Below, in pieces: positions 9,169-32,805 of a stretch of DNA of 44,446 nt; position 1 is the first letter of the stretch, and every line of letters begins with the position of its first letter. Position numbers and translations under genes: made by a program. The notes below the pieces were generated by a model. It searched no databases. It had not been told where the DNA came from and saw nothing but the letters and a program-made list of their open reading frames with translations. The stretch is from Escherichia phage vB_EcoM_SHAK7704. Location of the stretch: the sequence record OR594181. One strand, given 5' to 3'.

Positions 9169-9181
9169 GCTCTTTAACAAT
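9169..9181 (+). promoter_or_regulatory. Conserved 13-mer GCTCTTTAACAAT (copy 3)
   Basis: Upstream of the 9225 ORF. Confidence 0.4.
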
Positions 9182-9224
9182 CGGGCTAGTGCCTTGGTAG
9201 GCTAACTACTTACTAAGGTGAACT

Positions 9225-9437
9225 ATGAACTACTGCGACATCGCTCACGAATTACGCATGGAACGTGAGAAACAAGAGAAGCGGATTATCAAGAAGATGG
9301 CTGTACTGCTTGCACACTATAAGGCAGACAAACAGCCAACACATGATGAGTTCGTGGACTTCTGTAACATGTATCTTAATGTGAGTAAGGCCACTGGTTA
9401 CAGATGGCTTAAAGCACTGAATGATGGAGAATTGTAG
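9225..9437 (+). CDS. Early small protein with possible HTH-like segment
   Basis: 70 aa; AAGGTG RBS; C-terminal SKATGYRWLKAL resembles excisionase/AlpA-type DNA-binding helices. Confidence 0.5.
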   Translation: MNYCDIAHELRMEREKQEKRIIKKMAVLLAHYKADKQPTHDEFVDFCNMYLNVSKATGYRWLKALNDGEL

Positions 9438-9480
9438 CAATAAGCCAGCTTAATAGCTGGCCTATCAAGGCACTAACCTA

Positions 9481-9493
9481 GCCCTTTAACAAT
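9481..9493 (+). promoter_or_regulatory. Conserved 13-mer GCCCTTTAACAAT (copy 4) inside a bulged dyad
   Basis: Flanked by cctatcaaggcac / gtgtcttgatagg imperfect inverted repeat; preceded by hairpin GCCAGCT-taat-AGCTGGC. Confidence 0.45.
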
Positions 9494-9539
9494 CTGGTTT
9501 TGTGTCTTGATAGGCTTACTAACAGAAAGGTAAATTATC

Positions 9540-9707
9540 ATGGAAACTTTAATCGTTACCACTACAATCAACGGCGTAAGTATCAGCATAACTAAGTATT
9601 CTTCCGAAGAGTATGAAGTGAATCACGGAATAGCTGCTATGGTGTATGACAACTTGGCAGATGCCGTGGAGCATTGGATACAGTCATGTAAGGCTGCAAT
9701 TAAGTAG
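9540..9707 (+). CDS. Early hypothetical protein (55 aa)
   Basis: Not in the ORF track; AAAGG RBS; METLIVTTTINGVSISITKY... Confidence 0.4.
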   Translation: METLIVTTTINGVSISITKYSSEEYEVNHGIAAMVYDNLADAVEHWIQSCKAAIK

Positions 9708-9752
9708 GAAAGAGAAGGCTGGCACTAGCCAGCCTATCAAGGCACAAGCCAC

Positions 9753-9765
9753 GCTCTTTAACAAT
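9753..9765 (+). promoter_or_regulatory. Conserved 13-mer GCTCTTTAACAAT (copy 5)
   Basis: Preceded by hairpin GGCTGGC-acta-GCCAGCC; upstream of ocr. Confidence 0.4.
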
Positions 9766-9861
9766 ATGGGTAGTCGCTTCTTAGTCTGGATAGGTTAAAC
9801 CTAGGAGATTCTCTTGAGTCTCCTATAATGTAACCTAACTAACTAAATGAGGATTAATAAC

Positions 9862-10218
9862 ATGGCTATGTCTAATATGACTTACTCTCAGGTTTACAAC
9901 ACCGCTCATGCTGCATTAGTTGAACGTATCTGGGATGATGCTATTGATTGTATCGATAACGCACATGATGCAATCCATGAGGTGGCGGGTAGTGCTGTAC
10001 CAATCTATTATGCTGACATCTTCTCGGTGATGGCCAGTGAAGGCATCGACCACTTCTTCGAGGATTCTGGCTTAATGCCAGACACTAAGGATGTGACGGT
10101 CGTACTACAAGCCCGTATTTATGAACAACTCACCATTGATTTATGGGAACGTGTTCAAGATATGATTGATGCGTACATCGATTCCGCTGAGGATTCAGAA
10201 GAAGAGGAGGAAGAATAA
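9862..10218 (+). CDS. ocr: Ocr-like DNA-mimic anti-restriction protein (T7 gene 0.3 homolog)
   Basis: MAMSNMTY...[15 protein letters not shown]...[13 protein letters not shown]...[15 protein letters not shown] with acidic C-terminus, closely matching T7 Ocr as recalled; start at ATG 9862. Confidence 0.85.
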
Positions 10219-14278: not shown

Positions 14279-14286
14279 TATTAATA

Positions 14287-14318
14287 GGCCATTCCTTAGG
14301 GAGTGGCCTTTTTCTTTA
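14287..14318 (+). terminator. Intrinsic terminator after the RNAP gene
   Basis: GGCCATTCC-ttag-GGAGTGGCC stem followed by TTTTTCTTT. Confidence 0.65.
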
Positions 14319-14611: not shown

Positions 14612-14740
14612 ATGCGTAACTTTGAGAAGATGGCCCGTAAAGCTAACCGTTTTGACATAGAAGAAGGGCAGAAGAAAGGCAAGAAGCTGAATAAACCTGT
14701 CCGTGATCGTGCATCTAAACGCGCTGCGTGGGAGTTCTAA
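14612..14740 (+). CDS. Small basic protein (42 aa), T7 gp1.1-like by position
   Basis: MRNFEKMARKANRF..., Lys/Arg-rich; first gene after RNAP; GGAG RBS; the gp1.1 likeness is from memory. Confidence 0.5.
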   Translation: MRNFEKMARKANRFDIEEGQKKGKKLNKPVRDRASKRAAWEF

Positions 14741-14743
14741 GTT

Positions 14744-14962
14744 ATGGCTAAATACAGAATCAAGACCTGTTTAAATAGTCACGGGCAAGAGTGCTACATA
14801 GTGCAACGTAAAGTATTAGGCTTAATATGGGTCACGTGTATGATGCCTATTGGCTATACTGATACAGAGGCTATCTTCTGCACCGAAAGGGATGCAAAGA
14901 AGTTTATCTCTGAGCGTAGAAAAGCTGACTCTTACCAACCCAGAACTATTAAGGTGAACTAA
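14744..14962 (+). CDS. Hypothetical protein
   Basis: 72 aa; stop overlaps the primase/helicase start. Confidence 0.5.
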   Translation: MAKYRIKTCLNSHGQECYIVQRKVLGLIWVTCMMPIGYTDTEAIFCTERDAKKFISERRKADSYQPRTIKVN

Positions 14963-16950
14963 TGGCTATTATTAATAACATCCCGTGCCCTGCCTGCCAG
15001 AAGAATGGACACGATAAATCCGGCAATCATCTCATGATATTTGATGATGGTGCTGGCTATTGTAACCGTGGTCATTTCCACGATAACGGCAAGCCTTACT
15101 ATCATAAGCCAGAAGGTGGCATCGAGATCACCGAGTTGCCTATTACTGGCAATATCAAATATACACCTTCTCAATTCAAAGAGATGGAGAAGGAAGGGAA
15201 GATAAGCGACCCTAAGTTACGCGCCATCGCACTTGGTGGTATGCGTATGAAAGACCGATGGGAGGTCATGAATGAGCAAGAAAGGGCAGACCAAGAAGCA
15301 GAGTGGAAACTTGATGTTGAATGGTTCCTCACGCTTAAGCGTAAGAATCTTGTTTCCCGACACATTCGCGGCGACATTTGCGCATTGTATGATGTACGTG
15401 TCGGACACGATGAAGATGGTAGAGTCTCACGGCATTACTATCCACGCTTCGAGAAAGGTGAGCTAGTAGGCGCTAAGTGTCGCACATTACCTAAAGACTT
15501 TAAGTTTGGTCATTTAGGTAAACTCTTTGGTATGCAAGATCTTTTCGGTATGAATACTTTGTCTCACGTGTTAGACAAGGGAAGACGAAAGGATTGCTTG
15601 CTTATTGTAGGTGGTGAACTTGATGCACTAGCAGCACAGCAAATGCTCCTTGATTCTGCCAAGGGTACTAAGTGGGAAGGCCAGCCTTACCATGTATGGT
15701 CTGTCAATAAAGGTGAGTCTTGCCTTGAAGAGATAGTACAGAACCGTGAACACATCGCCCAATTTAAGAAGATTATATGGGGTTTTGATGGCGACGAGGT
15801 GGGGCAGAAGCAGAATCAGCAAGCGGCTCGCCTGTTTCCTGGCAAATCCTATATCCTTGAATACCCTTCTGGTTGCAAAGATGCTAACAAGGCATTGATG
15901 GCTGGCAAGGCTAAAGAGTTTGTTGATGCTTGGTTTAATGCCAAGTCATCTGATGAAGTCTTTGGTAGCCAGATTAAATCTATCGCATCTCAAAGGGATA
16001 AGCTCAAGGCTGCACGTCCAGAGCAAGGACTATCATGGCCTTGGCCTAAGCTGAACAAGGTAACGCTAGGTATTCGTAAGAACCAGCTTATCATTGTAGG
16101 TGCAGGTTCTGGTGTAGGTAAGACTGAGTTCCTCCGCGAAGTGGTTAAACATCTCATTGAAGAACACGGTGAATCTGTAGGCATCATTTCTACAGAAGAC
16201 CCAATGGTCAAGGTGTCCCGTGCTTTTATCGGCAAGTGGATTGATAAGCGTATTGAGTTACCGCCAACCAACGACCCGAAAGAAGACGGATACCGTGAGG
16301 TGTTCGACTACACCGAGGAAGAAGCTAACGCTGCCATTGATTATGTAGCTGATACAGGAAAGCTATTTGTGGCTGACCTAGAAGGCGATTATTCTATGGA
16401 GAAGGTAGAGCAAACTTGCCTAGAGTTTGAGGCTATGGGCATTTCTAATATCATCATTGATAACTTAACGGGGATTAAATTAGATGAGCGTGCTTTTGGT
16501 GGGAAGGTTGGTGCACTTGATGAATGCGTCAAACGAATTGGTACTATCAAAGACCGACATGCGGTTACGATTTTCCTTGTCTCTCACCTTACACGTCCTC
16601 CGGCAAACCGTACCCAACACGAAGAAGGTGGCGAAGTTATCCTTTCTGACTTCCGAGGCTCAGGCGCTATCGGATTCTGGGCATCTTACGCCTTGGGGAT
16701 TGAGCGTAATACAAGAGCTGAAACGCTTGATGAAAGGACTACCACGTACATCTCGTGTGTCAAAGACCGCGATCAAGGTATCTACACTGGAACCAAGGTC
16801 ATGCTTAAAGGTGACATTCAGACCGGACGTTTGATGGAACCACAAGCCCGTACTAAGTCATTTGATACAGGTGAAGCAAGGCAGCAAGAGGTGCCTGATT
16901 TACCGGACACTATAGAAGAGACAAACTTTGAAGATGAACAGGAGTTTTAA
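14962..16950 (+). CDS. DNA primase/helicase (T7 gp4-like)
   Basis: 662 aa; N-terminal Cys4 zinc motif CPAC...C..GH; Walker A GAGSGVGKT; acidic C-terminus ending in Phe (EDEQEF). Confidence 0.9.
   Translation: MAIINNIPCPACQKNGHDKSGNHLMIFDDGAGYCNRGHFHDNGKPYYHKPEGGIEITELPITGNIKYTPSQFKEMEKEGKISDPKLRAIALGGMRMKDRWEVMNEQERADQEAEWKLDVEWFLTLKRKNLVSRHIRGDICALYDVRVGHDEDGRVSRHYYPRFEKGELVGAKCRTLPKDFKFGHLGKLFGMQDLFGMNTLSHVLDKGRRKDCLLIVGGELDALAAQQMLLDSAKGTKWEGQPYHVWSVNKGESCLEEIVQNREHIAQFKKIIWGFDGDEVGQKQNQQAARLFPGKSYILEYPSGCKDANKALMAGKAKEFVDAWFNAKSSDEVFGSQIKSIASQRDKLKAARPEQGLSWPWPKLNKVTLGIRKNQLIIVGAGSGVGKTEFLREVVKHLIEEHGESVGIISTEDPMVKVSRAFIGKWIDKRIELPPTNDPKEDGYREVFDYTEEEANAAIDYVADTGKLFVADLEGDYSMEKVEQTCLEFEAMGISNIIIDNLTGIKLDERAFGGKVGALDECVKRIGTIKDRHAVTIFLVSHLTRPPANRTQHEEGGEVILSDFRGSGAIGFWASYALGIERNTRAETLDERTTTYISCVKDRDQGIYTGTKVMLKGDIQTGRLMEPQARTKSFDTGEARQQEVPDLPDTIEETNFEDEQEF
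16898..16915 (+). promoter_or_regulatory. Phage RNAP promoter ATTTACCGGACACTATAG inside the primase/helicase 3' end
   Basis: 18-mer lies in coding sequence and encodes ...PDTIEE... Confidence 0.6.
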
Positions 16951-17111
16951 TGGAAATTATTAAACCAGTATTGAATATCGGTATTGAGATCCTATTCATG
17001 CTTGTGATCGCAGATTATGCTGCACGATATGGATTCAAGAAAGCGGTGAAACTTATCGTTGCATCTGGTTTTCTTATGTCAATGTTCTTTATTGTAACAC
17101 GCCTTATCTAG
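16950..17111 (+). CDS. Small membrane protein (53 aa)
   Basis: Not in the ORF track; TAATG overlap with the helicase stop; two hydrophobic segments. Confidence 0.4.
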   Translation: MEIIKPVLNIGIEILFMLVIADYAARYGFKKAVKLIVASGFLMSMFFIVTRLI

Positions 17112-17124
17112 TGTATTTATCAGG

Positions 17125-17148
17125 GCTTGTCTCACATGTGAGACAGGC
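17125..17148 (+). terminator. Palindrome-family hairpin with T-rich tail (copy c)
   Basis: GCTTGTCTCACATGTGAGACAGGC followed by tcttatt. Confidence 0.45.
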
Positions 17149-17183
17149 TCTTATTAAGTACATTAAATAACTGGAGATTGATT

Positions 17184-17867
17184 ATGTATAAATTAGTATT
17201 GAATGCAGGTGATTATGTTCGTAACATCAATGCAACCTCACGTAGATATCGTTGCCGTGGTACTGTGACTAATGTAAGTGAAAACAGCTACTATGTAGAG
17301 TACAGTAATGGTATTAGACAGGCTTATCAAAAGGAATCAGCACATAACTACCTTGAGAAGATTGGAGAGGTAAGCAATCAATGTAAGTGCGTACACGATG
17401 AGATTTGCGATAAGTGTGCCCGCCAGATGCATAAAATGCTATTATACCCTCTTCGCTATGGTGCTGGCATTCAAACCTTAGCAGAGGCATATGGCAAAGG
17501 TAAGACTACACTTAATAAAGATCGCCGCAATGTAATCACTGGTAAGACTCAAAGTGAAATGATTAAGCAATGTGGCACTGCACTAGGTGTTACGCAGTTT
17601 AACACTCGTGCTCTTGGTAAATCCACAGGACAAGCTATGGTGAAGATTGGTGAAGCCATGATGCACCCAAATGTACCTGTGCGAATCATGGATGTTGACC
17701 ATGCAATCACAGAACACGGTACACCACGACGTGTAGCTAATAAGCATTTTGCCGACACTATAGAAGTTATTATCCGTAAGCAAGGGTTGAAAGGTCTTCA
17801 CCTCTTGAATGGTGAAGAATTACTGTATCTCCCTATTGTTACTGAAGAAACCTACGTGAATATTTAA
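17184..17867 (+). CDS. Hypothetical protein with Cys cluster
   Basis: 227 aa; GGAG RBS before ATG 17184; CKCVHDEICDKC cluster; contains promoter-like 18-mer at 17746-17763. Confidence 0.6.
   Translation: MYKLVLNAGDYVRNINATSRRYRCRGTVTNVSENSYYVEYSNGIRQAYQKESAHNYLEKIGEVSNQCKCVHDEICDKCARQMHKMLLYPLRYGAGIQTLAEAYGKGKTTLNKDRRNVITGKTQSEMIKQCGTALGVTQFNTRALGKSTGQAMVKIGEAMMHPNVPVRIMDVDHAITEHGTPRRVANKHFADTIEVIIRKQGLKGLHLLNGEELLYLPIVTEETYVNI
17746..17763 (+). promoter_or_regulatory. Variant phage promoter ATTTTGCCGACACTATAG, intragenic
   Basis: Conserved GACACTATAG core with a divergent upstream half; encodes ...ADTIEV... Confidence 0.35.
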
Positions 17868-17877
17868 GGAGTTAATC

Positions 17878-18093
17878 ATGACTAAAGTTCTAATTTATAA
17901 ACAACGAGGTCTTAAGGCTTATGCTATTGTAGCACCAAATGGTGTTAAAAAAGTAAGTTGTAAGCCTCTTGCAATAAAAGGTGCAGGTATGTCTGCTAAC
18001 TTCCAATTGCAACTTTTTGGCAATTTCACAGAAGCGCAATTCCGCAATAAACATGAAGTTATTGGTTCTTTTATGGTGAAACATGCAGAATAA
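17878..18093 (+). CDS. Hypothetical protein
   Basis: 71 aa; AAGGAG RBS. Confidence 0.55.
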   Translation: MTKVLIYKQRGLKAYAIVAPNGVKKVSCKPLAIKGAGMSANFQLQLFGNFTEAQFRNKHEVIGSFMVKHAE

Positions 18094-18292
18094 ACACAGC
18101 CTTAAGATGTTTGATGGTCACGAAGACCTGCAAGCACACATCACTAACCAAGCCTTCCTGTTTGCACAGTTAACTATGGCTGAAGCAAAGAAGAATAGTC
18201 TGACACGTGAGCAGGTTATCAAGGAGGCAACTTGGGAGCCACACCAAGGCAAATACATGGGCCAGAGATTAACTGTAACACGCAGTCGATAA
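18083..18292 (+). CDS. Hypothetical protein
   Basis: 69 aa; overlaps the previous stop; followed by hairpin d. Confidence 0.5.
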   Translation: MQNKHSLKMFDGHEDLQAHITNQAFLFAQLTMAEAKKNSLTREQVIKEATWEPHQGKYMGQRLTVTRSR

Positions 18293-18298
18293 GTAAAG

Positions 18299-18322
18299 GG
18301 TTGTCTCACACGTGAGACAGCC
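18299..18322 (+). terminator. Palindrome-family hairpin (CACGTG core variant) with T-rich tail (copy d)
   Basis: GGTTGTCTCACACGTGAGACAGCC followed by tttcatc. Confidence 0.45.
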
Positions 18323-18350
18323 TTTCATCATATTGATTGGGAGGTATTAA

Positions 18351-18503
18351 ATGACTAAGTTTACTATGCAAGACCTCATTAAATTACGTGATGAAATAGA
18401 ATCACCGGAAGTTAATACAGAGTTTCACTACATTGATCCACGAGATAAACGAGAGATTCCTGATTATCAGATTGAGACGGAGTTAATGTATGAAGATTAT
18501 TGA
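18351..18503 (+). CDS. Small acidic protein (50 aa)
   Basis: Not in the ORF track; GGGAGG RBS; overlaps the DNA polymerase start. Confidence 0.4.
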   Translation: MTKFTMQDLIKLRDEIESPEVNTEFHYIDPRDKREIPDYQIETELMYEDY

Positions 18504-21036
18504 TTGGAAGAAGGAAGCAGAAGGCCGTATCCTAGTGATGGATGCAGAGGCTAAAGGCCTGCTGAATGCTATCCGCTATGGTCATCGTGAAGATGTGCAT
18601 ATCATTTGCTGCATGGACTTGCTTACTACCGAGGAGTTTCTCTTCTTTGACCCGTATGAGATGCGTGACCCTGAAGCAAGAGAACACCTGAAGGAATGGG
18701 AAGGTCATCAAGATGGTGACTTGGTTGATGGTGTTAACTTCCTGAAGCACTGTGAAGCTATTGTGTCGCAGAACTTCCTAGGGTACGACGGCCTTCTATT
18801 TGAGAAAGCATTCCCTGATATCTGGAAAGGATTTAACTATACCGAGAGACGCGGCAAGGGCAGACTCCGCGCTGACCTGTGTCCGGTACGCGTCATGGAT
18901 ACGCTGGTCATGAGTCGCCTGTTAAACCCCGATAGACGCCTCCCTCCGCAAGCATACGCCAAAGGCATGGGTAACGTCGCCCCTCACTCAATTGAGGCGC
19001 ACGGCATCCGTATAGGCCGTTATAAGCCGGAGAACGAGGATTGGTCTAAGCTAACTGACCACATGGTTCACCGTGTACGGGAGGACGTGGCGATAGGCCG
19101 TGACTTGTTCCTCTGGCTCTTTAACGGGGAATGGATGGAGCACAAACGCCGTGGCGTGAATAAACGCACTGGCCTAGGTATTGAGACAGCCTTCCACATG
19201 GAGTCCATTGTGGCGCTGGAGATGAGCCGTCAGGCCGAGCGTGGATTCCGTCTGGATATAGATAAAGCATTAGCACGATGCGAGGAATTGGACGCTAAGA
19301 TTGATGAGACAGTCGCAGCGTTCCGTCCGCACATGCCTATGCGTATCAAGTCTAAACCTTTTAAACCGGAAGAAAAGAATGAAGTATGCCAACGCGCAAA
19401 TGAGTATGGAGCTAGCAACAATATACCTACTGTCCTTGACCCCTCTCACTTTCTTCACGCAGAGAGACGAGGAGATCGCAAGACAGTATGGAGTGTCACT
19501 ACTAAGTCTGGTGATTGGTCGGCTAGCGTCAAGAAAGACTTTCCTCACCTTAGAGGAAACCGTAATGACACGCCAAGCATCAAGTGGATTGGCGCTTACT
19601 CGCCTGTTACTTTCGAAGAGATTCCCTTGGGTAACAGGGATACAGTTAAGCAAGTGCTTTATGATTATGGATGGAAAGGTGTTGAATTTAACGATACCGA
19701 GCAAGCGCATCTCGATGAGCATGGCGTATTACCCAAGCCTTGGAGTGGGAAGATAAATGAAAAGTCCCTTACTTTATGGCAAGAGAGAGCCGCACGTGAA
19801 GGTAAAACAGTCCCTGATTGGTGCTTGGGTATCGCTGCATGGTACATACTCGTATCCCGTCGTGGTCAGATCCTCAACCGTGGTGACGTTGAAGCCTTCG
19901 ACCAGAAGGGGGTGTGGCCTTCGCAAGCTGGTATACGAAAGTGTCGCGGCCTTGTACCTGTAGCATTTAACAAGGAGTTAGGAATCAATGCGCAGCAATA
20001 CTACGAAAGGTACGGATGCTGGCCTACGTCAGACAAGGATGACGGAGAATGGCGTGTGCCAGCTATTGCTATTAGTATTGGAACTTCTACGTTCCGTATG
20101 CGTCATCGTAACGTGGTTAATATTCCTGCCCGTGGTTTGTATCCTTTACGTGATTTATTCATAGCCGGTAAAGGTAAGCTAATCCTTGGTTGTGATGGTG
20201 CTGGTCTTGAACTACGTGTACTGTCTCACTTCATGAATGACCCTGAATATCAAGATATTGTACTGCATGGTGACATTCACACCCATAATCAAATGAAGGC
20301 TGGTCTTCCTAAGCGTGACATGGCGAAGACATTTATATATGCCTTCCTATATGGGTCTGGTATAGCTAACCTTGCAGCAGTATGTGGTGTTACTGAGGAA
20401 GAAATGGAGGAAGTTGTGGCAAGATTTGAGGTTGAACTACCATCTCTTGCACGCCTTCGTGAGAATGTTATCGCACAAGGTAACAAGTTTGGCTACCTAC
20501 AAGCACCTGATGGTCATTGGGGTCGCATCCGTATGTCTGGTGGTGAACTTAAAGAGCACACTATGCTTAACGTACTACTCCAGATGACGGGTTCTCTGTG
20601 TATGAAATACGCATTGGTCAGAGCGTTTGCAGTGATGCGCAAGGAAGGTGTGGCCTTAGATAGTATGGGAAACCCTTGCGGTATAGCTAACGTGCACGAT
20701 GAAATCCAGATGGAAGTCCCTGAAGATGAGGTCTTGTATCTCAACTACGACTTGCCTTTCACCTTAGAAGGGTTCGAAACAGAGAAGGCTGCTGTGAAAG
20801 CAGTGTTCGATGCAGAGGAGAAACGTGTTCATGTGGATTCTGAAGGACGTATGTGGTCTGCTGCAAATCTCGTTAGCGTTGATGCTGATGCTGGTGTACT
20901 TCATTGCCAGCGTCGTTATCACCGTGCAGGGCATATCATTGCCGATGCAATGACTTGGGCTGGTCATTATTTGAAGATGCGTTGTCCGATGGCAGGTGAG
21001 TATAAGATTGGTGCAAGCTGGAAGGAAACACACTGA
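18490..21036 (+). CDS. DNA polymerase, family A
   Basis: 848 aa; motif A DGAGLELRVLSH, motif B K...FIYAFLYGSG, motif C VHDE. Confidence 0.95.
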   Translation: MKIIDWKKEAEGRILVMDAEAKGLLNAIRYGHREDVHIICCMDLLTTEEFLFFDPYEMRDPEAREHLKEWEGHQDGDLVDGVNFLKHCEAIVSQNFLGYDGLLFEKAFPDIWKGFNYTERRGKGRLRADLCPVRVMDTLVMSRLLNPDRRLPPQAYAKGMGNVAPHSIEAHGIRIGRYKPENEDWSKLTDHMVHRVREDVAIGRDLFLWLFNGEWMEHKRRGVNKRTGLGIETAFHMESIVALEMSRQAERGFRLDIDKALARCEELDAKIDETVAAFRPHMPMRIKSKPFKPEEKNEVCQRANEYGASNNIPTVLDPSHFLHAERRGDRKTVWSVTTKSGDWSASVKKDFPHLRGNRNDTPSIKWIGAYSPVTFEEIPLGNRDTVKQVLYDYGWKGVEFNDTEQAHLDEHGVLPKPWSGKINEKSLTLWQERAAREGKTVPDWCLGIAAWYILVSRRGQILNRGDVEAFDQKGVWPSQAGIRKCRGLVPVAFNKELGINAQQYYERYGCWPTSDKDDGEWRVPAIAISIGTSTFRMRHRNVVNIPARGLYPLRDLFIAGKGKLILGCDGAGLELRVLSHFMNDPEYQDIVLHGDIHTHNQMKAGLPKRDMAKTFIYAFLYGSGIANLAAVCGVTEEEMEEVVARFEVELPSLARLRENVIAQGNKFGYLQAPDGHWGRIRMSGGELKEHTMLNVLLQMTGSLCMKYALVRAFAVMRKEGVALDSMGNPCGIANVHDEIQMEVPEDEVLYLNYDLPFTLEGFETEKAAVKAVFDAEEKRVHVDSEGRMWSAANLVSVDADAGVLHCQRRYHRAGHIIADAMTWAGHYLKMRCPMAGEYKIGASWKETH

Positions 21037-21318
21037 TGGACAGGTTTGATGTTGTTTGCCTATTCTCTATCTTCTTTCTTATATTCCTTATGCTTGCTTG
21101 CTATGGAAGTATGCGATTAGATATACCTGATGAAGAGGAGGGTTACGATTGATGCAAACTGCTTTTATCATTCTTGGGATCATATTATTTATGGTAGTAT
21201 TCTGGGCTTTCTCTGGCATTGACCCAGATTGTGATGGTAACTACGACTGAGTTATACTCAAGGTCACTTACGAGTGGCCTTTATGAATAACTTATTCCTA
21301 CTTATTTTGTCTAACATG

Positions 21319-21336
21319 ATTTACTGGACACTATAG
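21319..21336 (+). promoter_or_regulatory. Phage RNAP promoter ATTTACTGGACACTATAG
   Basis: Exact consensus. Confidence 0.7.
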
Positions 21337-21406
21337 AAGGAAAGCCTAGGTAATCTAGGTTTATAAGGTAGTATAGGTAATTAAGTAAATATAGGAGATA
21401 TAAAAT

Positions 21407-21784
21407 ATGTCTATGGTAACTACTCTGGTATTCGTGGCTCAATACTTTCGTGGTCTTGCTAATAAGTTCAAGTCCAAGGCTATCAAAGCTATTGAGGCTC
21501 GCATCGAAGCAGTACAGGCAGAGCAAGTTAAAGTTGAAGAACATCGTAGTTCTCAAATGATTGACTGCCATAACCGCTACTATGCATCTCGTGATGAACT
21601 AAATGCACGTCAAGTCAAAGAGGTAGAAGATATGCTGGCACGTCACCAGCAAGAGCGTGACAGCCTGAAAGCTGAATTTGAAGAGAACAAGGCATCAATT
21701 GCTCTTGTAAATCAAGCTGCATCTGACAGCCTGAAGAAAGAGATTGTTATGCTGGAAATAGAACTGGACAACTTGACTAAATAA
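21407..21784 (+). CDS. Hypothetical coiled-coil protein
   Basis: 125 aa; AGGAG RBS; heptad-like charged sequence. Confidence 0.6.
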   Translation: MSMVTTLVFVAQYFRGLANKFKSKAIKAIEARIEAVQAEQVKVEEHRSSQMIDCHNRYYASRDELNARQVKEVEDMLARHQQERDSLKAEFEENKASIALVNQAASDSLKKEIVMLEIELDNLTK

Positions 21785-21789
21785 GGGTT

Positions 21790-22089
21790 ATGATGGAAGA
21801 AGTGATTCAAGCTAAACATGTAGGTATCATCTTTCGTGATCTAGAGCAGCGTAAAGTTGCAGGTCACACTCGTCTGGCTAAAGAAGACGATACAGCAATC
21901 ACTACTGTGGAACAAGCAGATGCCTATCGTGGTCCAGAGTTTACTCAAGGTGAAACTTGTCATCAATTGAGCCTTTCACTTTGTGACACTATGGCTAGTG
22001 TAAATGTACAAGAGGTTGAAGATGGTGAATGTGTTAGTTATGTCTACCCTCTCGATACTATTGCACGTATTAAGGTAGTTCATAAGTAA
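21790..22089 (+). CDS. Hypothetical protein
   Basis: 99 aa. Confidence 0.55.
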   Translation: MMEEVIQAKHVGIIFRDLEQRKVAGHTRLAKEDDTAITTVEQADAYRGPEFTQGETCHQLSLSLCDTMASVNVQEVEDGECVSYVYPLDTIARIKVVHK

Positions 22090-22104
22090 TTACTGGACAC
22101 TATA
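22087..22104 (+). promoter_or_regulatory. Phage RNAP promoter AATTACTGGACACTATAG
   Basis: Consensus with one upstream substitution. Confidence 0.65.
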
Positions 22105-22166
22105 GAACAATAGGTCGGCTTAGTTCGGCCTATGATTGTGTAGTGTAACAATAGGAGACTAAATAA

Positions 22167-22973
22167 ATGGCACGTGGTGATTTTGATTTTGGTGCTCAGG
22201 TTACTAAAGCTGAAGGTAAAGTATTTAAGAACCCTGAAGTTGGTGATCATGAAGCAGTAATCTCTGGCATCATTCATGTTGGTTCCTTCCAAGATATCTT
22301 TAAGAAAGGTAATACCACTGAAGTTAAGAAGCCAGCAAACTTTGTTCTTGTTAAGATTATCCTGATGGGTGACGACGATAAGAATGAAGATGATTCTCGC
22401 ATGGAACAATGGATGGCTGTGCCTCTGAAGTCTGGTGATAAGGCAACGCTGACTAAGTTCCTGAATGCAGTTGACCCTAAAGAGTTGCTGGGTGGCTTCG
22501 ATGATTTTATCGGTGAATGTCTGACTGCAACTATGGTTGGCTCTGGTGACAAGAATGATGATGGTACTTTCAAGTATGTTAACTGGAAAGGCTTTGGCGG
22601 TATGCCTGATAAGTTGAAGAAGCTTGTACTGGCTCAGGTAGAAGAGGAAGGTCTGTCTATGACAGGTCATATCACCTTCGACAAGCTGACCAAAGAAATC
22701 CTTGATGACATCCCAGCTAACTTGGTACGTCAATACTTCCTGAATGAGACACCTCGTGGTAAGAACCTGTCTGTTGCTGGCTCTCACGTAGAAGCTATTA
22801 TCAAAGCTGCTCGTGAAGAAGACCCTGAATGGAAGAAGGCTAAGAAGAAAGATGAGGAAGATGCTACCCCAGCTAATCGTAAATCTCTGGATACTGGTGA
22901 GTCTGTTCCACAGGAAGTACCTGAAGCAGAAGATACTCCTGCACCGGAGATGGATGAGGACGCGGAATATTAA
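22167..22973 (+). CDS. Putative single-stranded DNA-binding protein (T7 gp2.5-like architecture)
   Basis: 268 aa; AGGAG RBS; acidic C-terminal tail ending in an aromatic residue (...EMDEDAEY); in the replication cluster. Assigned by architecture, not by alignment. Confidence 0.5.
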   Translation: MARGDFDFGAQVTKAEGKVFKNPEVGDHEAVISGIIHVGSFQDIFKKGNTTEVKKPANFVLVKIILMGDDDKNEDDSRMEQWMAVPLKSGDKATLTKFLNAVDPKELLGGFDDFIGECLTATMVGSGDKNDDGTFKYVNWKGFGGMPDKLKKLVLAQVEEEGLSMTGHITFDKLTKEILDDIPANLVRQYFLNETPRGKNLSVAGSHVEAIIKAAREEDPEWKKAKKKDEEDATPANRKSLDTGESVPQEVPEAEDTPAPEMDEDAEY

Positions 22974-22982
22974 GGAGAAAGG

Positions 22983-23201
22983 ATGAAAGTACAAATCGTA
23001 ACCCTGCACTGCAAGAAAGGAATTACAACTCTTGGCGGCAACACTTTTCACTCCTTCTCTGAAGGGGACACATATGCCGACCTGCACTACATCTGGCGCG
23101 ACGGACAGCACGTGGTGAACTACAGCGATCCAGCTACGGGGAAACGCCACGGCGTATCGCTTCCGGCGCATGACATTGCTCAGGTGAACACAGTTTTATA
23201 A
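22983..23201 (+). CDS. Hypothetical protein, locally GC-rich
   Basis: 72 aa; strong AAGGAGAAAGG RBS; GC-rich codons unlike neighbours. Confidence 0.55.
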   Translation: MKVQIVTLHCKKGITTLGGNTFHSFSEGDTYADLHYIWRDGQHVVNYSDPATGKRHGVSLPAHDIAQVNTVL

Positions 23202-23202
23202 A

Positions 23203-23218
23203 GTCTCACGTGTGAGAC
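23203..23218 (+). repeat. 16-bp palindrome GTCTCACGTGTGAGAC (copy e)
   Basis: Perfect palindrome; directly upstream of the promoter at 23234. Confidence 0.8.
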
Positions 23219-23233
23219 AAATCGGTGTCCGGT

Positions 23234-23251
23234 ATTTACTGGACACTATAG
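23234..23251 (+). promoter_or_regulatory. Phage RNAP promoter ATTTACTGGACACTATAG
   Basis: Exact consensus. Confidence 0.7.
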
Positions 23252-23306
23252 AAGAGAAGAATTTTAATCGGCGATAATGCCATAACCAACAAAAGGAGAA
23301 TTTAAT

Positions 23307-23678
23307 ATGTTCAAGATTGAAACTATCGTAAACCGTGTTGTTAAAGGTGCTGCTCTGGTATCCGTTGAGTCTTTCATTATCGTCGATGAAGCTGATCAAC
23401 TGGTAGCTGGTACTAAGGCTTACGATACCCGTGAAGAAGCTCAGGCTAAGATTGACAGCATGGGTAACTTCGCTGCTGGTCTGGAGTTCGCTCGTGCTTG
23501 CTTCCCTGAGCAGGCTGACAAAGCCCAGATCGGGAAGGCTAACATCGTAGCTGAATATCTGGATTGGATTGCTGCTGGTAAACCAGTGAAAGAAGTTAAA
23601 GCTGCTGAAGAAGCTGAAGCTCCTGCAGTAGAAGTGTCTGCACCGGAAGCTCCGGTTAGCGAAGAGGAAGAGTTTTGA
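23307..23678 (+). CDS. Small acidic protein, apparently highly expressed
   Basis: 123 aa; own promoter and terminator; AAAAGGAG RBS; C-terminus ...VSEEEEF. Confidence 0.65.
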   Translation: MFKIETIVNRVVKGAALVSVESFIIVDEADQLVAGTKAYDTREEAQAKIDSMGNFAAGLEFARACFPEQADKAQIGKANIVAEYLDWIAAGKPVKEVKAAEEAEAPAVEVSAPEAPVSEEEEF

Positions 23679-23746
23679 TAATAGCAGGTGTAGCCTCTGT
23701 TAGTCCTAGTTGACTATCACGCTCACCTCATCTAATGCCCTGTCTG

Positions 23747-23773
23747 CCTTAGTGTAGGCAGGGTCTTTTGCGT
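23747..23773 (+). terminator. Intrinsic terminator, same family as the one after the capsid gene
   Basis: GCCCTGTCTGCC-ttagtg-TAGGCAGGG then TCTTTTG. Confidence 0.6.
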
Positions 23774-23795: not shown

Positions 23796-24068
23796 ATGCC
23801 GACTATTGAATCTCGAATTGAACTGGACATTAGCTACAATGCAATCACCAGACAGTATATTGGGGTTGCCTATGATTACAAAACTGGTGAGAAGCTAGTG
23901 GAGGTGAGACAATGGGATGACTATTGGTTAAGACAGAACCTCCATGATGCGGTGTCCTCCTTCTTGAAGGAGTGGCCTACATGCGACCAAACTTCGACTT
24001 CGGAGCTACAGTATCGGAAGACAATAATCTCATCCTGTGGCCGACTGAAGGTAATCGAATCGCTTTAA
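23796..24068 (+). CDS. Hypothetical protein (3' end overlaps exonuclease)
   Basis: 90 aa; GGAG RBS; last ~29 codons overlap the exonuclease in another frame. Confidence 0.45.
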   Translation: MPTIESRIELDISYNAITRQYIGVAYDYKTGEKLVEVRQWDDYWLRQNLHDAVSSFLKEWPTCDQTSTSELQYRKTIISSCGRLKVIESL

Positions 24069-25009
24069 TAGATGCTGATATGTTACCCTACATCGTAGGT
24101 TATACAATCAGTGACATGACTTATTTACGAGCCACAACTCGTGTTAAGTCAGGACAAGTCCCATCAATCAAAGATACACCTGAGTGTAAGCAAGCATGTG
24201 ACCGTGTGAACTCCTTGCTTAACTCTTGGGTGTATGCAGCAGAGTGTGATGCAGCTAAGCTATTCATGACGAAATCAGAAGCTAACTTCCGTGTCCGCCT
24301 AGCATTCACAAAGCCTTATAAGGGTCAACGTAAGACCGAGAAGCCTCCGTTCTTCTATGAATTGCGAGAGCATCTCTTAGAGGTTCACGGTGCAATCTTG
24401 GCAGATGGAGAAGAAGCTGATGACCTCATGAGCATCGCACAATGGGATAGCCACCGCCGCTTCCTGCAAGATACAGGTAACGAGTTCCCTATCGGTAGTC
24501 CAGAGCATAAAGCATTCTCTGATACTTGCATCGTTTCCTTAGATAAGGATTTGATGATTGTTCCCGGTTGGCATCTTCAGCCGGGTCAAGAGAAGAAGTG
24601 GGTAGAGCCTATGGGCTGGCTTGAGCTATGCCGTAAGGCTAATGGGCAAGTCAAAGATCTAAAAGGTGCTGGCCTCATGTTCCACTATGCACAGATGATT
24701 ATCGGTGATGATATTGATAACTATGCTGGCATACCAGGTCGTGGTGCTAAATATGCCTATGATCTTCTCAAAGATTGTAAGACAGAGAAAGAGTTGTACA
24801 TGGCAGTGCTGGGTGCTTACAAGGCTAAGTTCGGGCATGGACAAGTTAAAATTAAGAATTACCGAGGTGGTTATCGTATCGGCAAAGCCTTTGACCTTAT
24901 GCTTGAATGCGGTCGCTTAGCTCACATGGCTAGGTTCAAAGGTGATATATGGCGAGCCGATAAGAACCCAATCTTGTGGGGAGATGATGCGGAATGGTTA
25001 GCAAATTAA
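23981..25009 (+). CDS. 5'-3' exonuclease (T7 gp6-like, FEN family)
   Basis: ATG 23981 with AAGGAG 9 nt upstream (track starts at GTG 23972); IALIDADMLPY... N-terminal motif. Confidence 0.8.
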   Translation: MRPNFDFGATVSEDNNLILWPTEGNRIALIDADMLPYIVGYTISDMTYLRATTRVKSGQVPSIKDTPECKQACDRVNSLLNSWVYAAECDAAKLFMTKSEANFRVRLAFTKPYKGQRKTEKPPFFYELREHLLEVHGAILADGEEADDLMSIAQWDSHRRFLQDTGNEFPIGSPEHKAFSDTCIVSLDKDLMIVPGWHLQPGQEKKWVEPMGWLELCRKANGQVKDLKGAGLMFHYAQMIIGDDIDNYAGIPGRGAKYAYDLLKDCKTEKELYMAVLGAYKAKFGHGQVKIKNYRGGYRIGKAFDLMLECGRLAHMARFKGDIWRADKNPILWGDDAEWLAN

Positions 25010-26475: not shown

Positions 26476-26946
26476 ATGTCAAAGATTTATATTGGCGAAT
26501 ACGTCGTACGCCGTGCAGCTTACCGAGATGCCTTCTGGAATAAACTGTGTGAAAGCCTAGGCAAGAAACCAGATGGGGTATTCAAAGTATCCCGTGCAGA
26601 ACCTAATTATAACTCTATTATGTTAGAAGGTGTTGAGAAGCGCGAATGGTATGCACCTTACTTCAAGGTTGTTGACTCATTGCAAGATGAAGATCCTAGC
26701 ACGTTGGACAACAATATGGTTACTAAGCCTAAGCACTATGAGTTCTTCGATGGGGTAGAGGCAATCACTATCATTGCTCGTAGTATGACCGAGAAGCAAT
26801 TTGCTGGATATTGCATGGGTAATGCTTTGAAGTATCGTCTGCGTGCAGGGAAGAAATTCAACACGGAAGAAGATCTGAAGAAAGCAGACTACTACAAAGA
26901 GCTATTCCAGAAGCATCGTCACGAATGTATTGATGAGGATATTTAA
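26476..26946 (+). CDS. T7 gp1.7-like protein (nucleotide kinase family)
   Basis: C-terminal KPKHYEFFDGVEAITIIARSMTEKQFAGYCMGNALKYRLRAGKK...YYKELF matches the T7 gp1.7 C-terminus as recalled; ATG 26476 after GGAGGA. Confidence 0.6.
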   Translation: MSKIYIGEYVVRRAAYRDAFWNKLCESLGKKPDGVFKVSRAEPNYNSIMLEGVEKREWYAPYFKVVDSLQDEDPSTLDNNMVTKPKHYEFFDGVEAITIIARSMTEKQFAGYCMGNALKYRLRAGKKFNTEEDLKKADYYKELFQKHRHECIDEDI

Positions 26947-26947
26947 T

Positions 26948-27064
26948 ATGACTTGTCCTAATTGTGGAAGTGAAGAAACAGAACATGTAGTTATGTCAGA
27001 TACTTATCATTTCTACTTCTGTCATAGCTGCGACACCACCATTGAAGAGGAAGAAGCTGTATGA
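26948..27064 (+). CDS. Small zinc-ribbon protein (38 aa)
   Basis: Not in the ORF track; CPNC...CHSC; ATGA overlap with the ligase start. Confidence 0.4.
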   Translation: MTCPNCGSEETEHVVMSDTYHFYFCHSCDTTIEEEEAV

Positions 27065-28008
27065 ATATATTCCAATTCCTAGGTCTTCCAGAAGACCACC
27101 GCAATCACCCATTCATGCTGGTGAAACATCGCGGTGAAGTACCTGAGAAGAAATTAACTTTTCCATGTTATGCACAGGTAAAACGAGATGGTATATTTAG
27201 TGCTGTGGTTGTTCGCAACGATGGTGACGTTGGTATCTTTGGACGCACTGGAAAGAAACTGGCTAACACGGAAACCTTGGAAGAATCTTATTCAGCTTTC
27301 CCTACTGGCATTTATCTCGGTGAGTTGCAATCTATGGCTATTGATGTCTACCTTGAAGCACTTTCTGGAGTAGTTAACCCTAACCGCACTGAGCCACTAG
27401 ATTTCATAGGCCAGCAGATTAAAGACAACCTGTATATTGACTTCTTCGATATGTTAACTATTAAGGCATTCCATGATGGATTCACTGATGTTTCTTATCT
27501 CAAACGTTACGATGCTTTACATCGTCGCATCGGCGCTCATCTTAGCGGGTACAACGCTATCCTTCCTATTACTCCTTGCCATAATGAGCGAGAAGTTGAA
27601 GCGTTTGCGCAAGAGCAAATAGACGCAGGCCGAGAGGGTGCTGTGTTTAAACTGGACTGTGATTATGAAGCAGGCCACAAAGGTTATCGTCAGACTAAAG
27701 AAGTCCGTAAGGTAACTTATGACCTTACTTGTATTGGCTTTGAAGAAGGCAAAGGTAAGTACAAAGGTAAGGTAGCTAACCTCATTTTCAAATGGAAAGG
27801 GGGCAAGACAATCAAAGCTATGTTAGGTAAAGGGTGGACTCATGCAGATGCAGAACAGATGTTCCACGATATTAAACATGGTGGACGATTGAATGTCATT
27901 GGTAAAATCTTTGAAGTAAAAGGTCTTCAGGATTCAAGCAAGGGCAACATTCGTCTGCCCAAAGCGGGAGAATTAAGACATGACAAAGATGAACCAGATT
28001 TCTTTTGA
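27061..28008 (+). CDS. ATP-dependent DNA ligase
   Basis: 315 aa; KRDG adenylation motif (KxDG). Confidence 0.75.
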   Translation: MNIFQFLGLPEDHRNHPFMLVKHRGEVPEKKLTFPCYAQVKRDGIFSAVVVRNDGDVGIFGRTGKKLANTETLEESYSAFPTGIYLGELQSMAIDVYLEALSGVVNPNRTEPLDFIGQQIKDNLYIDFFDMLTIKAFHDGFTDVSYLKRYDALHRRIGAHLSGYNAILPITPCHNEREVEAFAQEQIDAGREGAVFKLDCDYEAGHKGYRQTKEVRKVTYDLTCIGFEEGKGKYKGKVANLIFKWKGGKTIKAMLGKGWTHADAEQMFHDIKHGGRLNVIGKIFEVKGLQDSSKGNIRLPKAGELRHDKDEPDFF

Positions 28009-28195
28009 TAGCATGAAGGCAACTCGTGCAGTTGAGGTAGCAGAAGCTATCTTTGAAACTTTATCCTGTGGCATGGAATTGCCGTATACTTTACTGGCTG
28101 ATGCAGAAGAGCTTGGTCTTTCTGTAGAAGCTATCCAAGAGAAGGTTGAAGAACTCTATGGTACAGACGAAGAAGAAACCGACGATTTCATTTGA
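27980..28195 (+). CDS. Hypothetical acidic protein
   Basis: 71 aa; overlaps the ligase 3' end. Confidence 0.45.
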   Translation: MTKMNQISFDSMKATRAVEVAEAIFETLSCGMELPYTLLADAEELGLSVEAIQEKVEELYGTDEEETDDFI

Positions 28196-31482: not shown

Positions 31483-31500
31483 ATTTACTGGACACTATAG
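31483..31500 (+). promoter_or_regulatory. Phage RNAP promoter ATTTACTGGACACTATAG (capsid gene)
   Basis: Exact consensus; transcript begins with hairpin GGGAGA-aatg-TCTCCC. Confidence 0.75.
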
Positions 31501-32769: not shown

Positions 32770-32805
32770 GCCCTATCTACCTTGCGTAGGTAGGGTTCTT
32801 TTGTT
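32770..32805 (+). terminator. Intrinsic terminator after the capsid gene
   Basis: CCCTATCTACC-ttgcg-TAGGTAGGG stem then TTCTTTTGTT; homologous to the terminator at 23747. Confidence 0.7.

Follow-up and report, generated by a model that had tools for sequence, protein, structure and literature searches.

It is known that in phage T7 the C-terminal tails of the helicase-primase gp4 and of gp2.5 bind basic patches on the DNA polymerase gp5 and compete with each other, and PDB 6P7E contains a bound DTDF peptide (PMC12339929; bioRxiv 10.64898/2026.05.20.726333). The gp2.5 tail is also required for stimulation of the gp6 exonuclease (PMC4124056). The DNA analysed in this work (the window) is a stretch of 44,446 nt from Escherichia phage vB_EcoM_SHAK7704 (OR594181), a K1E/K1-5-like Vectrevirus (coliphage) of the same family as T7, Autographiviridae, and its helicase-primase and family-A polymerase are homologous to those of T7. 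Both phages have a disordered acidic tail with an aromatic end on their helicase and on a protein with an OB fold. In bacteria, over a dozen genome-maintenance proteins use the C-terminal tip of SSB (..DDDIPF) as their hub, and clamp-binding motifs include the PIP box on PCNA clients such as DNA ligase I, as well as the beta-clamp-binding peptides; we know of no sliding clamp in T7-type replisomes. The EEY/F-COOH motifs of alpha-tubulin, EB1 and CLIP-170, which are read by CAP-Gly domains, are a near-identical C-terminal code (acidic residues, then Y/F) on several otherwise unrelated proteins; these are eukaryotic and cytoskeletal, however, and the likeness is purely convergent.

The plus-strand genes of the window were screened for a terminal F, Y or W with at least two D/E in the preceding four residues. 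Five out of 54 genes match this pattern, every one of them within the replication module: gp9, gp16, gp18, the DNA ligase gp24 and gp12. Residue shuffles of the same proteins gave a mean of 0.46 matches, and 0/2000 shuffles reached five; one of 153 minus-strand ORFs of the window matches. The tips read DEQEF in gp9, EDAEY in gp16, EEEEF in gp18 and EPDFF in the ligase, and the tail segments are acid-rich (pI 4.05). An earlier note had described such tails as shared by three proteins. The translations reproduce the tails of gp9 (ending ..IEETNFEDEQEF), gp16 and gp18 exactly in coordinates and sequence, so all three are real, but the count was too low: the ligase had been overlooked, and at least four proteins carry a tail. 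The proteins and their features are:

14962..16950, plus strand: primase/helicase gp9, 662 aa, T7 gp4 homologue (Pfam DnaB_C, Toprim_2; PHROG 239, E 1e-188)
16822..16947, plus strand: gp9 C-terminal tail, about residues 621-662, tip NFEDEQEF, past the last residue aligned to T7 gp4
18351..18503, plus strand: gp12, 50 aa, with the C-terminus ..ELMYEDY; it overlaps the start of the polymerase gene and may be a fifth bearer
22088..22108, plus strand: phage-RNAP promoter 5' of gp16, AATTACTGGACACTATAGAAC, differing from the 21-nt consensus at 2 positions
22167..22973, plus strand: gp16, 268 aa, OB-fold SSB-like protein, ending ..APEMDEDAEY
22842..22970, plus strand: gp16 disordered acidic tail, about residues 226-268, tip P-x-M-D-E-D-A-E-Y (pLDDT <55 from residue 230)
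23307..23678, plus strand: gp18, 123 aa, an acidic globular body of about 93 aa plus a flexible tail (PHROG 4429), ending ..APVSEEEEF
23586..23675, plus strand: gp18 linker and tail, residues 94-123, tip SEEEEF; the linker varies in sequence and length
27061..28008, plus strand: ATP-dependent DNA ligase gp24, 315 aa, the fourth tailed protein (Pfam DNA_ligase_A_M, DNA_ligase_OB_2)
27979..28005, plus strand: ligase C-terminal tip, residues 307-315, ..HDKDEPDFF, beyond residue 306, where the Pfam OB domain ends

The tips were compared across about 40 related loci, which belong to Molineuxvirinae, to Colwellvirinae or to unclassified relatives, with each distinct protein counted once. The final aromatic residue has been retained by 32 of 33 helicases, 38 of 39 gp16 proteins, 34 of 36 gp18 proteins and 29 of 35 ligases. 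Among control families it ends 0/35 DNA polymerases, 0/36 exonucleases, 0/29 endonucleases VII, 0/32 RNA polymerases, 0/26 gp17 and 0/24 gp10 proteins and 1/31 phosphoesterases. The tips are also kept in a metagenomic lineage about 30% identical. The motif, its conservation and its restriction to replication proteins are observed directly. Acidic C-termini that lack the aromatic do occur in the window, at 9847-10218 (..EDSEEEEEE) and 26930-27064 (..EEEEAV), as would be expected if the pattern were a chance or compositional artefact of acidic phage proteins. Against this explanation stand the shuffles and the retention of the aromatic over deep divergence in four families, with zero or one such member in each of the seven control families; we consider it effectively refuted.

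The linkers that precede the tails are hypervariable while the tip is conserved, and this supports the view that the tails behave as short linear docking motifs. In gp18, for example, the linker has a pairwise identity of 0.20 vs 0.35 for the body and the terminal F is still retained. Three of the tails are Y-ended together in loci L036 and L037, the gp16 and gp18 proteins of Uliginvirus both have 1-2 extra residues past the F, and DNTQEF is the C-terminal hexapeptide of both a helicase and a gp16 protein from related contigs. The SP6 helicase likewise continues beyond the aromatic (..QEFNG); because some tails run 1-2 residues past it, a free carboxylate on the aromatic is not universal. None of these tails is found in phiKMV, in which primase and helicase are split.

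By BLASTP, gp9 is 25% identical to T7 gp4A over 459 aa (E 2e-29, residues 162-607), and on this sequence evidence it is a true homologue of T7 gp4. The two tails share their position and a two-aromatic layout (NFEDEQEF vs DWSNDTDF; aromatic-x6-acidic-F), and the consensus of the gp9 family is ..x-[QSE]-E-[FY]; the tip is D-F in T7 vs E-[FY] here. The structure prediction for gp16 gives an OB-fold core and a disordered tail, so that gp16 is SSB-like by its modelled fold. A gp16 profile had no match among PDB sequences, and its hhalign comparison with T7 gp2.5 gave a probability of 0.07%, so that neither sequence nor profile similarity is detectable. The designation SSB-like in the earlier note holds for the predicted fold and not for any detectable sequence homology to gp2.5. 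Its fold, tail, own promoter and high codon optimality suggest that gp16 may bind ssDNA, and its terminal Y/F persists in homologues as distant as 29% identity. In gp24 an adenylation domain (PF01068, 32.5 bits, cut-off 26.2) is followed by an OB domain (PF14743, 38.1 bits, cut-off 28) and by a short tip of about nine residues which is weakly acidic; its consensus, RHDK-x-x-x-D-[FY], holds in the 29 aromatic-ended homologues, the aromatic being missing in the other six. The T7 and phiKMV ligases do not have such a tip. The small protein gp12 occurs in only eight phage records (K1-5, SP6 and a few others), and K1E has an unrelated gene at its position.

Each tail could act on the protein that bears it, by folding back on the DNA-binding surface as an auto-inhibitor of electrostatic type or as a mimic of DNA, with no common receptor and with a resemblance that is convergent. 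This would suit gp9, gp16 and the ligase, which all bind DNA and might use a switch of this kind, and there is a precedent in the AlphaFold2 model of T7 gp2.5 used for simulations, where the tail lies on the protein's own positively charged groove (PMC12339929). Several features of the tails argue in the other direction: the body of gp18 is itself acidic with no obvious basic surface for folding back, the ligase tip is too short and too weakly acidic for a DNA mimic, the terminal aromatic rather than the net charge is strictly kept, which points to a specific pocket, and the tips of different families co-vary within lineages. We judge self-inhibition to be quite unlikely.

With T7 as the model, the candidate receptor of the tails would be the polymerase:

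18490..21036, plus strand: family-A DNA polymerase gp13 (Pfam DNA_pol_A), putative tail receptor

The earlier note had pointed to the basic patch of the T7 polymerase, and this part of its proposal is not supported, since the patch is not conserved. When gp13-type polymerases are aligned to T7 gp5, they have a 14-residue deletion at the front basic patch (K587/K589/R590/R591); of these positions, K589 alone is frequently basic, and F/Y and G stand opposite R590/R591. A conserved RIR[KR]xGGK insertion adjoins the site of the deleted patch, but the loop is not discriminating, as tail-less phiKMV is also basic there. At the position of the thioredoxin-binding domain in the thumb, these polymerases have a longer, dissimilar insertion of 114-133 aa with a net charge of +2 to +6; R-x-G is the sole element that aligns to the basic loops of the T7 domain, in a region where the alignment is unreliable. 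The system thus differs from T7 in the number of bearers (four vs two, with the ligase and gp18 added), in gp16 not being detectably homologous to gp2.5, in a polymerase without the front patch and in the insertion at the thioredoxin site.

The remaining bearer, gp18, is found in 212 phage records. It has no match in Pfam or NCBIfam, and PHROG 4429 is a family of unknown function. In the gp18 model residues 1-93 are folded and residues 94-123 have pLDDT <50; a structural-neighbour search with this model returned nothing convincing and no enzymatic fold was detected. A DUF1508/YegP-like domain was compared, as a candidate, with the N-terminal half of gp18. Both parts of the protein are acidic (pI 4.7 for the body, 4.05 for the tail). 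The E-x-F end is present in the 34 phage homologues counted above and in 16-18 of 24 metagenomic representatives. The gene is flanked by expression signals of its own:

23234..23254, plus strand: perfect consensus phage promoter dedicated to gp18, ATTTACTGGACACTATAGAAG, 0 mismatches
23737..23771, plus strand: T-phi-like terminator hairpin directly 3' of gp18, 11-bp stem then CTTTTG, -18.3 kcal/mol

This promoter is identical to the capsid promoter at 31483, and the hairpin, the best terminator-like site within 14-33 kb, is a near-twin of the hairpin 3' of the capsid gene (32770-32796). An equivalent hairpin and U-run follow gp18 in nine out of nine diverse phages examined and also in metagenomic loci, and the promoter-gene-terminator cassette is conserved in all lineages examined. 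The codon optimality of gp18 (Fop 0.77) is the maximum of the genome. Because of the conserved cassette and the top codon optimality, gp18 is probably very abundant. The earlier note had left open whether gp18 is an extra replisome component or a competitor; capsid-grade expression signals fit a competitor better than an extra replisome subunit at catalytic level.

The very high predicted expression is equally compatible with a role directed at the host. One such role would be that of a decoy whose SSB-type tail titrates the enzymes that dock on the bacterial SSB C-terminus (exonuclease I, RecQ, RecJ, PriA and the chi subunit of DNA polymerase III), protecting phage replication and recombination intermediates while the helicase and SSB tails stay T7-like. 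Capsid-grade expression is what is expected of a titrating decoy, and the acidic body and tail and the lack of a detected enzymatic fold also speak for it. The phage tails have in common with the bacterial tip that acidic residues lead up to a terminal Phe, that an OB-fold protein carries the motif on a disordered linker and, as proposed here, that the motif serves protein-protein recruitment. A distant metagenomic gp16-like protein (L047) ends in NDDVPF, near the bacterial SSB tip, indicating that such tails can drift toward the host motif. This is the only such end, however; the window tips do not match the D-D-D-I-P-F consensus, and gp18 lacks the Ile-Pro read by the host partners. Its E-E-x-F tip resembles the phage helicase and SSB tips rather than D-I-P-F, and gp18 becomes Y-ended only in a lineage whose helicase tail is Y-ended too. 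In bacteria one tail serves many receptors, whereas here many proteins bear the tail. A host-aimed decoy is unlikely in our estimation.

In a different host-directed role, gp18 would do the work of T7 gp5.5 or of some other abundant protein directed against the host (an antagonist of a nucleoid protein or nuclease, for instance), and its tail would be incidental to the replisome. The T7 protein is reported to be highly expressed, as the expression signals of gp18 also suggest for gp18; it is annotated as an H-NS antagonist, ends in ..REVF and belongs to the same size class, and its gene likewise lies between those for the polymerase and the 5'-3' exonuclease. By hhalign, though, gp18 gave probabilities of at most 2.4% against gp5.5, gp5.9 and the other small T7 proteins, with no sequence or profile similarity to any of them, and gp5.5 does not carry a long acidic leash. 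The gp18 family and its tail are furthermore conserved in phages of Vibrio, Pseudomonas, Ralstonia, Marinomonas and Aeromonas, hosts with differing nucleoid proteins. We regard this counterpart as very unlikely.

The reading that we prefer, with a probability of about 0.5, is that of a T7-type tail-docking network widened to four clients, in which the tails are a shared docking peptide and gp18 is an abundant competitor or regulator. The peptide would be a short acidic run ending in Phe or Tyr on a flexible leash, borne by gp9, gp16, gp18 and gp24, and by analogy with T7 it would plug into basic, aromatic-accepting sites on partner replication proteins. From the same analogy we infer that the tails may have a common receptor, that the polymerase gp13 is its likeliest candidate and that gp18 may act there. 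Binding of the four bearers would be mutually exclusive and exchangeable: the helicase gp9 would recruit and retain the polymerase, the SSB-like gp16 would hand over the template, and the ligase gp24 would be brought to finished Okazaki fragments. With its acidic body and capsid-like expression, gp18 would be a stoichiometric competitor, buffer or adaptor at the same sites and not an enzyme. If this proposal holds, the network would resemble clamp-binding motifs in having a terminal peptide common to polymerase-associated factors and a ligase, with competitive and sequential access to a hub in Okazaki-fragment maturation; the motif chemistry is unrelated, and the hub here would be the polymerase or another replisome protein.

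A bolder version, which we hold to be rather doubtful, is that '[D/E]-x-[F/Y]-COOH' is a general client code for a single hub, probably the polymerase, in the clamp-less T7-type replisomes of SP6/K1E and Colwellvirinae phages, with gp18 as a dedicated regulator of access made at capsid level. If true, the code would be the functional equivalent of a PIP box, ordering helicase coupling, SSB hand-off and ligase recruitment, and gp18, by tuning or gating access to the hub through tail competition, would regulate replisome exchange competitively, a virus-encoded function for which no counterpart has been described.

The 44.4-kb window amounts to essentially the complete genome of a Vectrevirus of the K1E/K1-5 type (Autographiviridae, Molineuxvirinae). 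It shares 99.8% identity with phage PhiNW-E1 and 97.6% with K1E over 4.1 kb, and gene names here follow the K1E numbering. Every gene lies on the + strand; the long ORFs that can be read on the minus strand of this interval (e.g., 22080-23171 opposite gp16) were disregarded as unsupported. When C-terminal ends were scored for a terminal F, Y or W preceded by at least two acidic residues in the four before it, we observed 5 matches among 54 plus-strand genes, against a mean of 0.46 in residue shuffles, and 1 among 153 minus-strand ORFs. All five matching genes (gp9, gp12, gp16, gp18, and gp24) are inside the replication module. It is very improbable that the pattern arose by chance, since none of 2000 shuffles reached the observed five. 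The earlier note had named three tailed proteins, gp9, gp16, and gp18; the ends it gave are identical to the translations, and the tail of the ligase gp24 had been overlooked.

Tail-bearing genes and the DNA polymerase in the window
14962-16950, + strand: gp9, primase/helicase, tip ..NFEDEQEF
18351-18503, + strand: gp12, 50-aa acidic ORF (K1-5/SP6 gp12) overlapping the polymerase start, tip ..ELMYEDY
18490-21036, + strand: gp13, family-A DNA polymerase, between gp9 and gp16
22167-22973, + strand: gp16, tip ..EMDEDAEY
23307-23678, + strand: gp18, tip ..VSEEEEF
27061-28008, + strand: gp24, ATP-dependent DNA ligase, tip ..RHDKDEPDFF

Two further candidates were left out of the core set: gp12 (..YEDY) because it was found in only 8 phage records, and gp25 because the ends of its homologues vary between aromatic and purely acidic. 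K1E carries an unrelated 72-aa gene at the gp12 position, so the slot is mosaic. The gp25 protein (71 aa, 27980-28195) has the acidic end ..EEETDDFI, its homologues end in ..EDEQDY, ..EADYQY, ..EDEAYY or purely acidic strings, and gp25 may belong to this class of tails in degenerate form. Two other ends were observed: an early-region 123-aa protein (9847-10218) has a pure acidic C-terminal run lacking an aromatic residue and may be a DNA-mimic-type early protein, and a 42-aa basic ORF (K1E gp8, 14612-14740), located shortly before the primase region, has the C-terminus ..RAAWEF, an E-F end lacking the acidic run.

To compare the tails, replication modules were drawn from ten phages and from 30 viral contigs, gathered by tblastn against phages (gp18) and by gp16 alignment, and orthologues were assigned by BLASTP. 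Most orthologues of the four bearers keep the terminal aromatic residue.

Orthologues ending in an aromatic residue (counts over distinct proteins)
Primase/helicase: 32 of 33
gp16: 38 of 39
gp18: 34 of 36
Ligase: 29 of 35
DNA polymerase: 0 of 35
Exonuclease: 0 of 36
Endonuclease VII: 0 of 29
RNA polymerase: 0 of 32
gp17: 0 of 26
gp10: 0 of 24
Phosphoesterase: 1 of 31

The motif P-x-[ML]-D-x-x-x-E-[YF] is retained in gp16 homologues down to 35-40% identity, and EEEF ends all 120 of the closest gp18 homologues among the matches listed (at least 78% identity). An exhaustive HMM search with gp18 yielded 29 cluster representatives with identity down to 23-30%, across which the body can be aligned and an E-x-F end is kept by most proteins, whereas the linker of 25-30 residues is hypervariable, in sequence as well as in length. 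By tblastn the gp18 family is present in 212 phage records, and those listed in this spread are all podovirus genomes of about 42-47 kb. The gp18-bearing records opened that carry a taxonomy line belong to Molineuxvirinae, Colwellvirinae or unclassified Autographiviridae, except that Vibrio phage Vc1 is filed under Drexlerviridae in its own record; their hosts range from Escherichia to Vibrio, Pseudomonas, Ralstonia, Marinomonas, and Aeromonas.

The theme persists in a still more distant metagenomic phage (L047), with ..FDEFT on the helicase, ..NDDVPF on the gp16-like protein, ..GEEFE on the gp18-like protein, and ..NPDF on the ligase. Departures from the usual form are instructive. The SP6 helicase has the tip ..QEFNG. 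In Uliginvirus, residues past the Phe are found in gp16 (..EQEFGE) and gp18 (..ETFE, ..ESFEG), not in the helicase or ligase. Tyr ends the helicase, gp16, and gp18 alike in loci L036 and L037. Such lineage-specific co-variation, which amounts to few independent events, supports the existence of shared receptors; set against it, the alternative that each tail is intramolecular, auto-inhibitory, and independent of the others appears unlikely. In the Pseudomonas phages Nerthus and Achelous (L006 and L043), gp16 and gp18 both carry 1-2 post-Phe residues and the helicase and ligase retain the terminal aromatic, which hints that gp16 and gp18 may share one receptor and that the helicase and ligase use a different one. 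In the distant phage L047, the gp16-like protein (9177-9929) ends in ..DPNDDVPF, similar to the bacterial SSB tip DDDIPF, and its neighbours retain E-F-type ends.

Among the bearers, gp9 is a bona fide homologue of T7 gp4 (E 2e-29). The alignment stops at residue 607, leaving gp9 with a tail of about 40-55 residues. Tips of the gp9 family often have a second aromatic residue about seven residues upstream (NFEDEQEF, PFDVDDTQEF; compare T7 ..DWSNDTDF). The ligase gp24 is a standard two-domain enzyme whose Pfam OB domain extends to residue 306, and its tip is therefore a nine-residue appendage. For gp16 and gp18, searches of Pfam, NCBIfam, PHROGs, and PDB sequence profiles gave no useful identity. 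gp16 falls in no Pfam family and resembles neither T7 gp2.5 (hhalign) nor any PDB chain in sequence or profile; a sub-threshold NCBIfam match to a phage replication-initiation family (18 bits vs. a cut-off of 75) was discarded. In the AlphaFold model of gp16 (pLDDT 78), a beta-barrel leads into a helical subdomain, and the chain from about residue 230 onward is a disordered tail. The earlier description of gp16 as SSB-like is thus supported by fold, tail, its own promoter, and high codon optimality, and does not extend to membership of the gp2.5 family.

In the model of gp18, about 93 residues fold into an acidic body (pI 4.7) with a beta-hairpin and helices, followed by a disordered leash of 30 residues; pLDDT is about 89 over the first 50 residues and lower beyond. 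No family annotation was found in Pfam or NCBIfam, PHROGs gave nothing useful, and the structural neighbours are limited to weak DUF1508/YegP-like resemblances. When gp18 was compared with eleven small T7 proteins by hhalign, no relationship was detected; it is considered improbable that gp18 is an anti-host protein of the gp5.5 type whose tail is incidental. Its gene is flanked by strong expression signals.

Expression signals around gp16 and gp18
22088-22108, + strand: gp16's own promoter
23234-23254, + strand: perfect 21-nt phage promoter ATTTACTGGACACTATAGAAG, 52 nt upstream of gp18
23737-23764 plus CTTTTG, + strand: hairpin past the gp18 stop codon, -18.3 kcal/mol, the best terminator-like structure in 14-33 kb

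The gp18 promoter matches that of the major capsid gene (at 31483) in every base, and the hairpins of the two genes are near twins (GCCCTGTCTGCC..GGCAGGGT CTTTTG after gp18; GCCCTATCTACC..GGTAGGGT TCTTTTG at 32770-32796 after the capsid gene). A third hairpin (14286-14309) lies past the RNA polymerase gene. The fraction of optimal codons is 0.77 in gp18, the genome maximum, compared to 0.71 in the capsid gene, 0.63 in gp16, and about 0.50 in the polymerase and helicase. Each of the nine diverse phages examined, and three metagenomic contigs as well, has a promoter-like sequence 5' of gp18 and, immediately 3' of it, a hairpin that is GC-rich and has a U-run; a promoter at this upstream position is annotated in the AS51 record. 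To judge from these signals, gp18 is made for very high expression and is apparently very abundant. Since gp16 has its own promoter and belongs to the unit that ends at the gp18 terminator-like hairpin, the two proteins would be co-expressed at high level; exonuclease and endonuclease genes follow downstream. It is also conceivable that gp18 serves as a decoy and draws off host proteins which recognise tails of the SSB type, a reading we hold doubtful, if a shade less so than auto-inhibition.

A 16-bp palindrome, GTCTCAC[A/G]TGTGAGAC, occurs in 8 perfect or near-perfect copies vs. 0.07 expected (7990, 14352, 14543, 15561, 17129, 18303, 23203, and 39643). Several copies are 15-20 nt upstream of phage promoters, including that of gp18, and like palindromes are found 5' of the gp18 homologues that Vibrio phages AS51 and BD1 carry; the element might serve in RNA processing or as an operator. 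Two neighbouring annotations also drew attention. gp15 (21407-21784, 125 aa) ranks third in the genome in codon optimality (Fop 0.67) and has a perfect consensus promoter at 21319; the relatives' annotation, "polysaccharide chain length determinant protein," looks doubtful for a replication-module protein of this size with no Pfam match above cut-off. gp19 (90 aa, PHROG "DNA repair protein," 23796-24068) overlaps the GTG-initiated exonuclease gene (23972-25009) by about 100 nt, and exonucleases of relatives are 30-70 residues longer; the exonuclease gene start, or a split or frameshift, may be worth checking.

T7 provides the textbook example of a minimal replisome, for which competition between two tails is the accepted account of polymerase recruitment and exchange. 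In the same pattern analysis T7 has exactly two bearers, gp2.5 (..DEDGDF) and gp4 (..SNDTDF); in phiKMV the pattern is absent from the helicase, ligase, and neighbouring genes. The T7 gp4 and gp2.5 tails compete with each other (PMC12339929; bioRxiv 10.64898/2026.05.20.726333), and stimulation of the gp6 exonuclease also requires the gp2.5 tail (PMC4124056). We aligned T7 gp5 with nine polymerases of this phage group (28-32% identity). The receptor proposed earlier, the basic patch of the T7 polymerase, does not transfer because the front basic patch falls within a 14-residue deletion in these enzymes. A conserved insertion, RIR[KR]xGGK, is present just downstream of the deleted patch; it was rejected as a replacement receptor because it is non-discriminating, tail-less phiKMV being basic there too. 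At the thumb position of the T7 thioredoxin-binding domain, the insertion in these polymerases is longer (114-133 residues), does not resemble that of T7, and has a net charge of +2 to +6. Another basic site on gp13, or a site on gp9, gp16 or the exonuclease, may serve instead. No literature was found on SP6-like replisomes, their thioredoxin dependence, gp16 or gp18, and trxA is not mentioned in a Salmonella host-factor screen that includes SP6.

We propose, with a probability of about 0.5 for the full statement, that a T7-type tail-docking network has been widened to four clients; that the tails are functional docking motifs is more probable than the full statement. By analogy, the helicase and SSB tails would act as in T7, and the ligase tip would admit the Okazaki-sealing enzyme to the same hub, PIP-box-like in function. 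gp18 would act stoichiometrically at the tail-binding sites as competitor, buffer or adaptor, a role proposed because the protein is acidic, no test pointed to an enzyme, and its expression resembles that of a structural protein.

Acidic, aromatic-ended tails on the helicase and SSB of the T7 family are known biology. What appear undescribed are such a tail on a ligase, such a tail on a conserved and apparently very abundant protein of unknown fold (gp18), the loss of the T7 receptor patch, and the conserved gp18 promoter-gene-terminator cassette. gp16 (PHROG 862) becomes a probable SSB for phages now annotated without one, and the gp18 family (PHROG 4429) gains a concrete hypothesis in 212 sequenced phages, including K1-specific ones proposed for therapy. 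A T7-sister lineage of common coliphages and marine phages carries the same tail type on its ligase and an abundant protein of unknown function, with a polymerase that lacks the T7 patch. This would alter the T7-based picture: together these observations point to tail docking as an organising code of wider reach, which includes Okazaki-fragment sealing besides synthesis, and suggest that its receptor site can shift in evolution.
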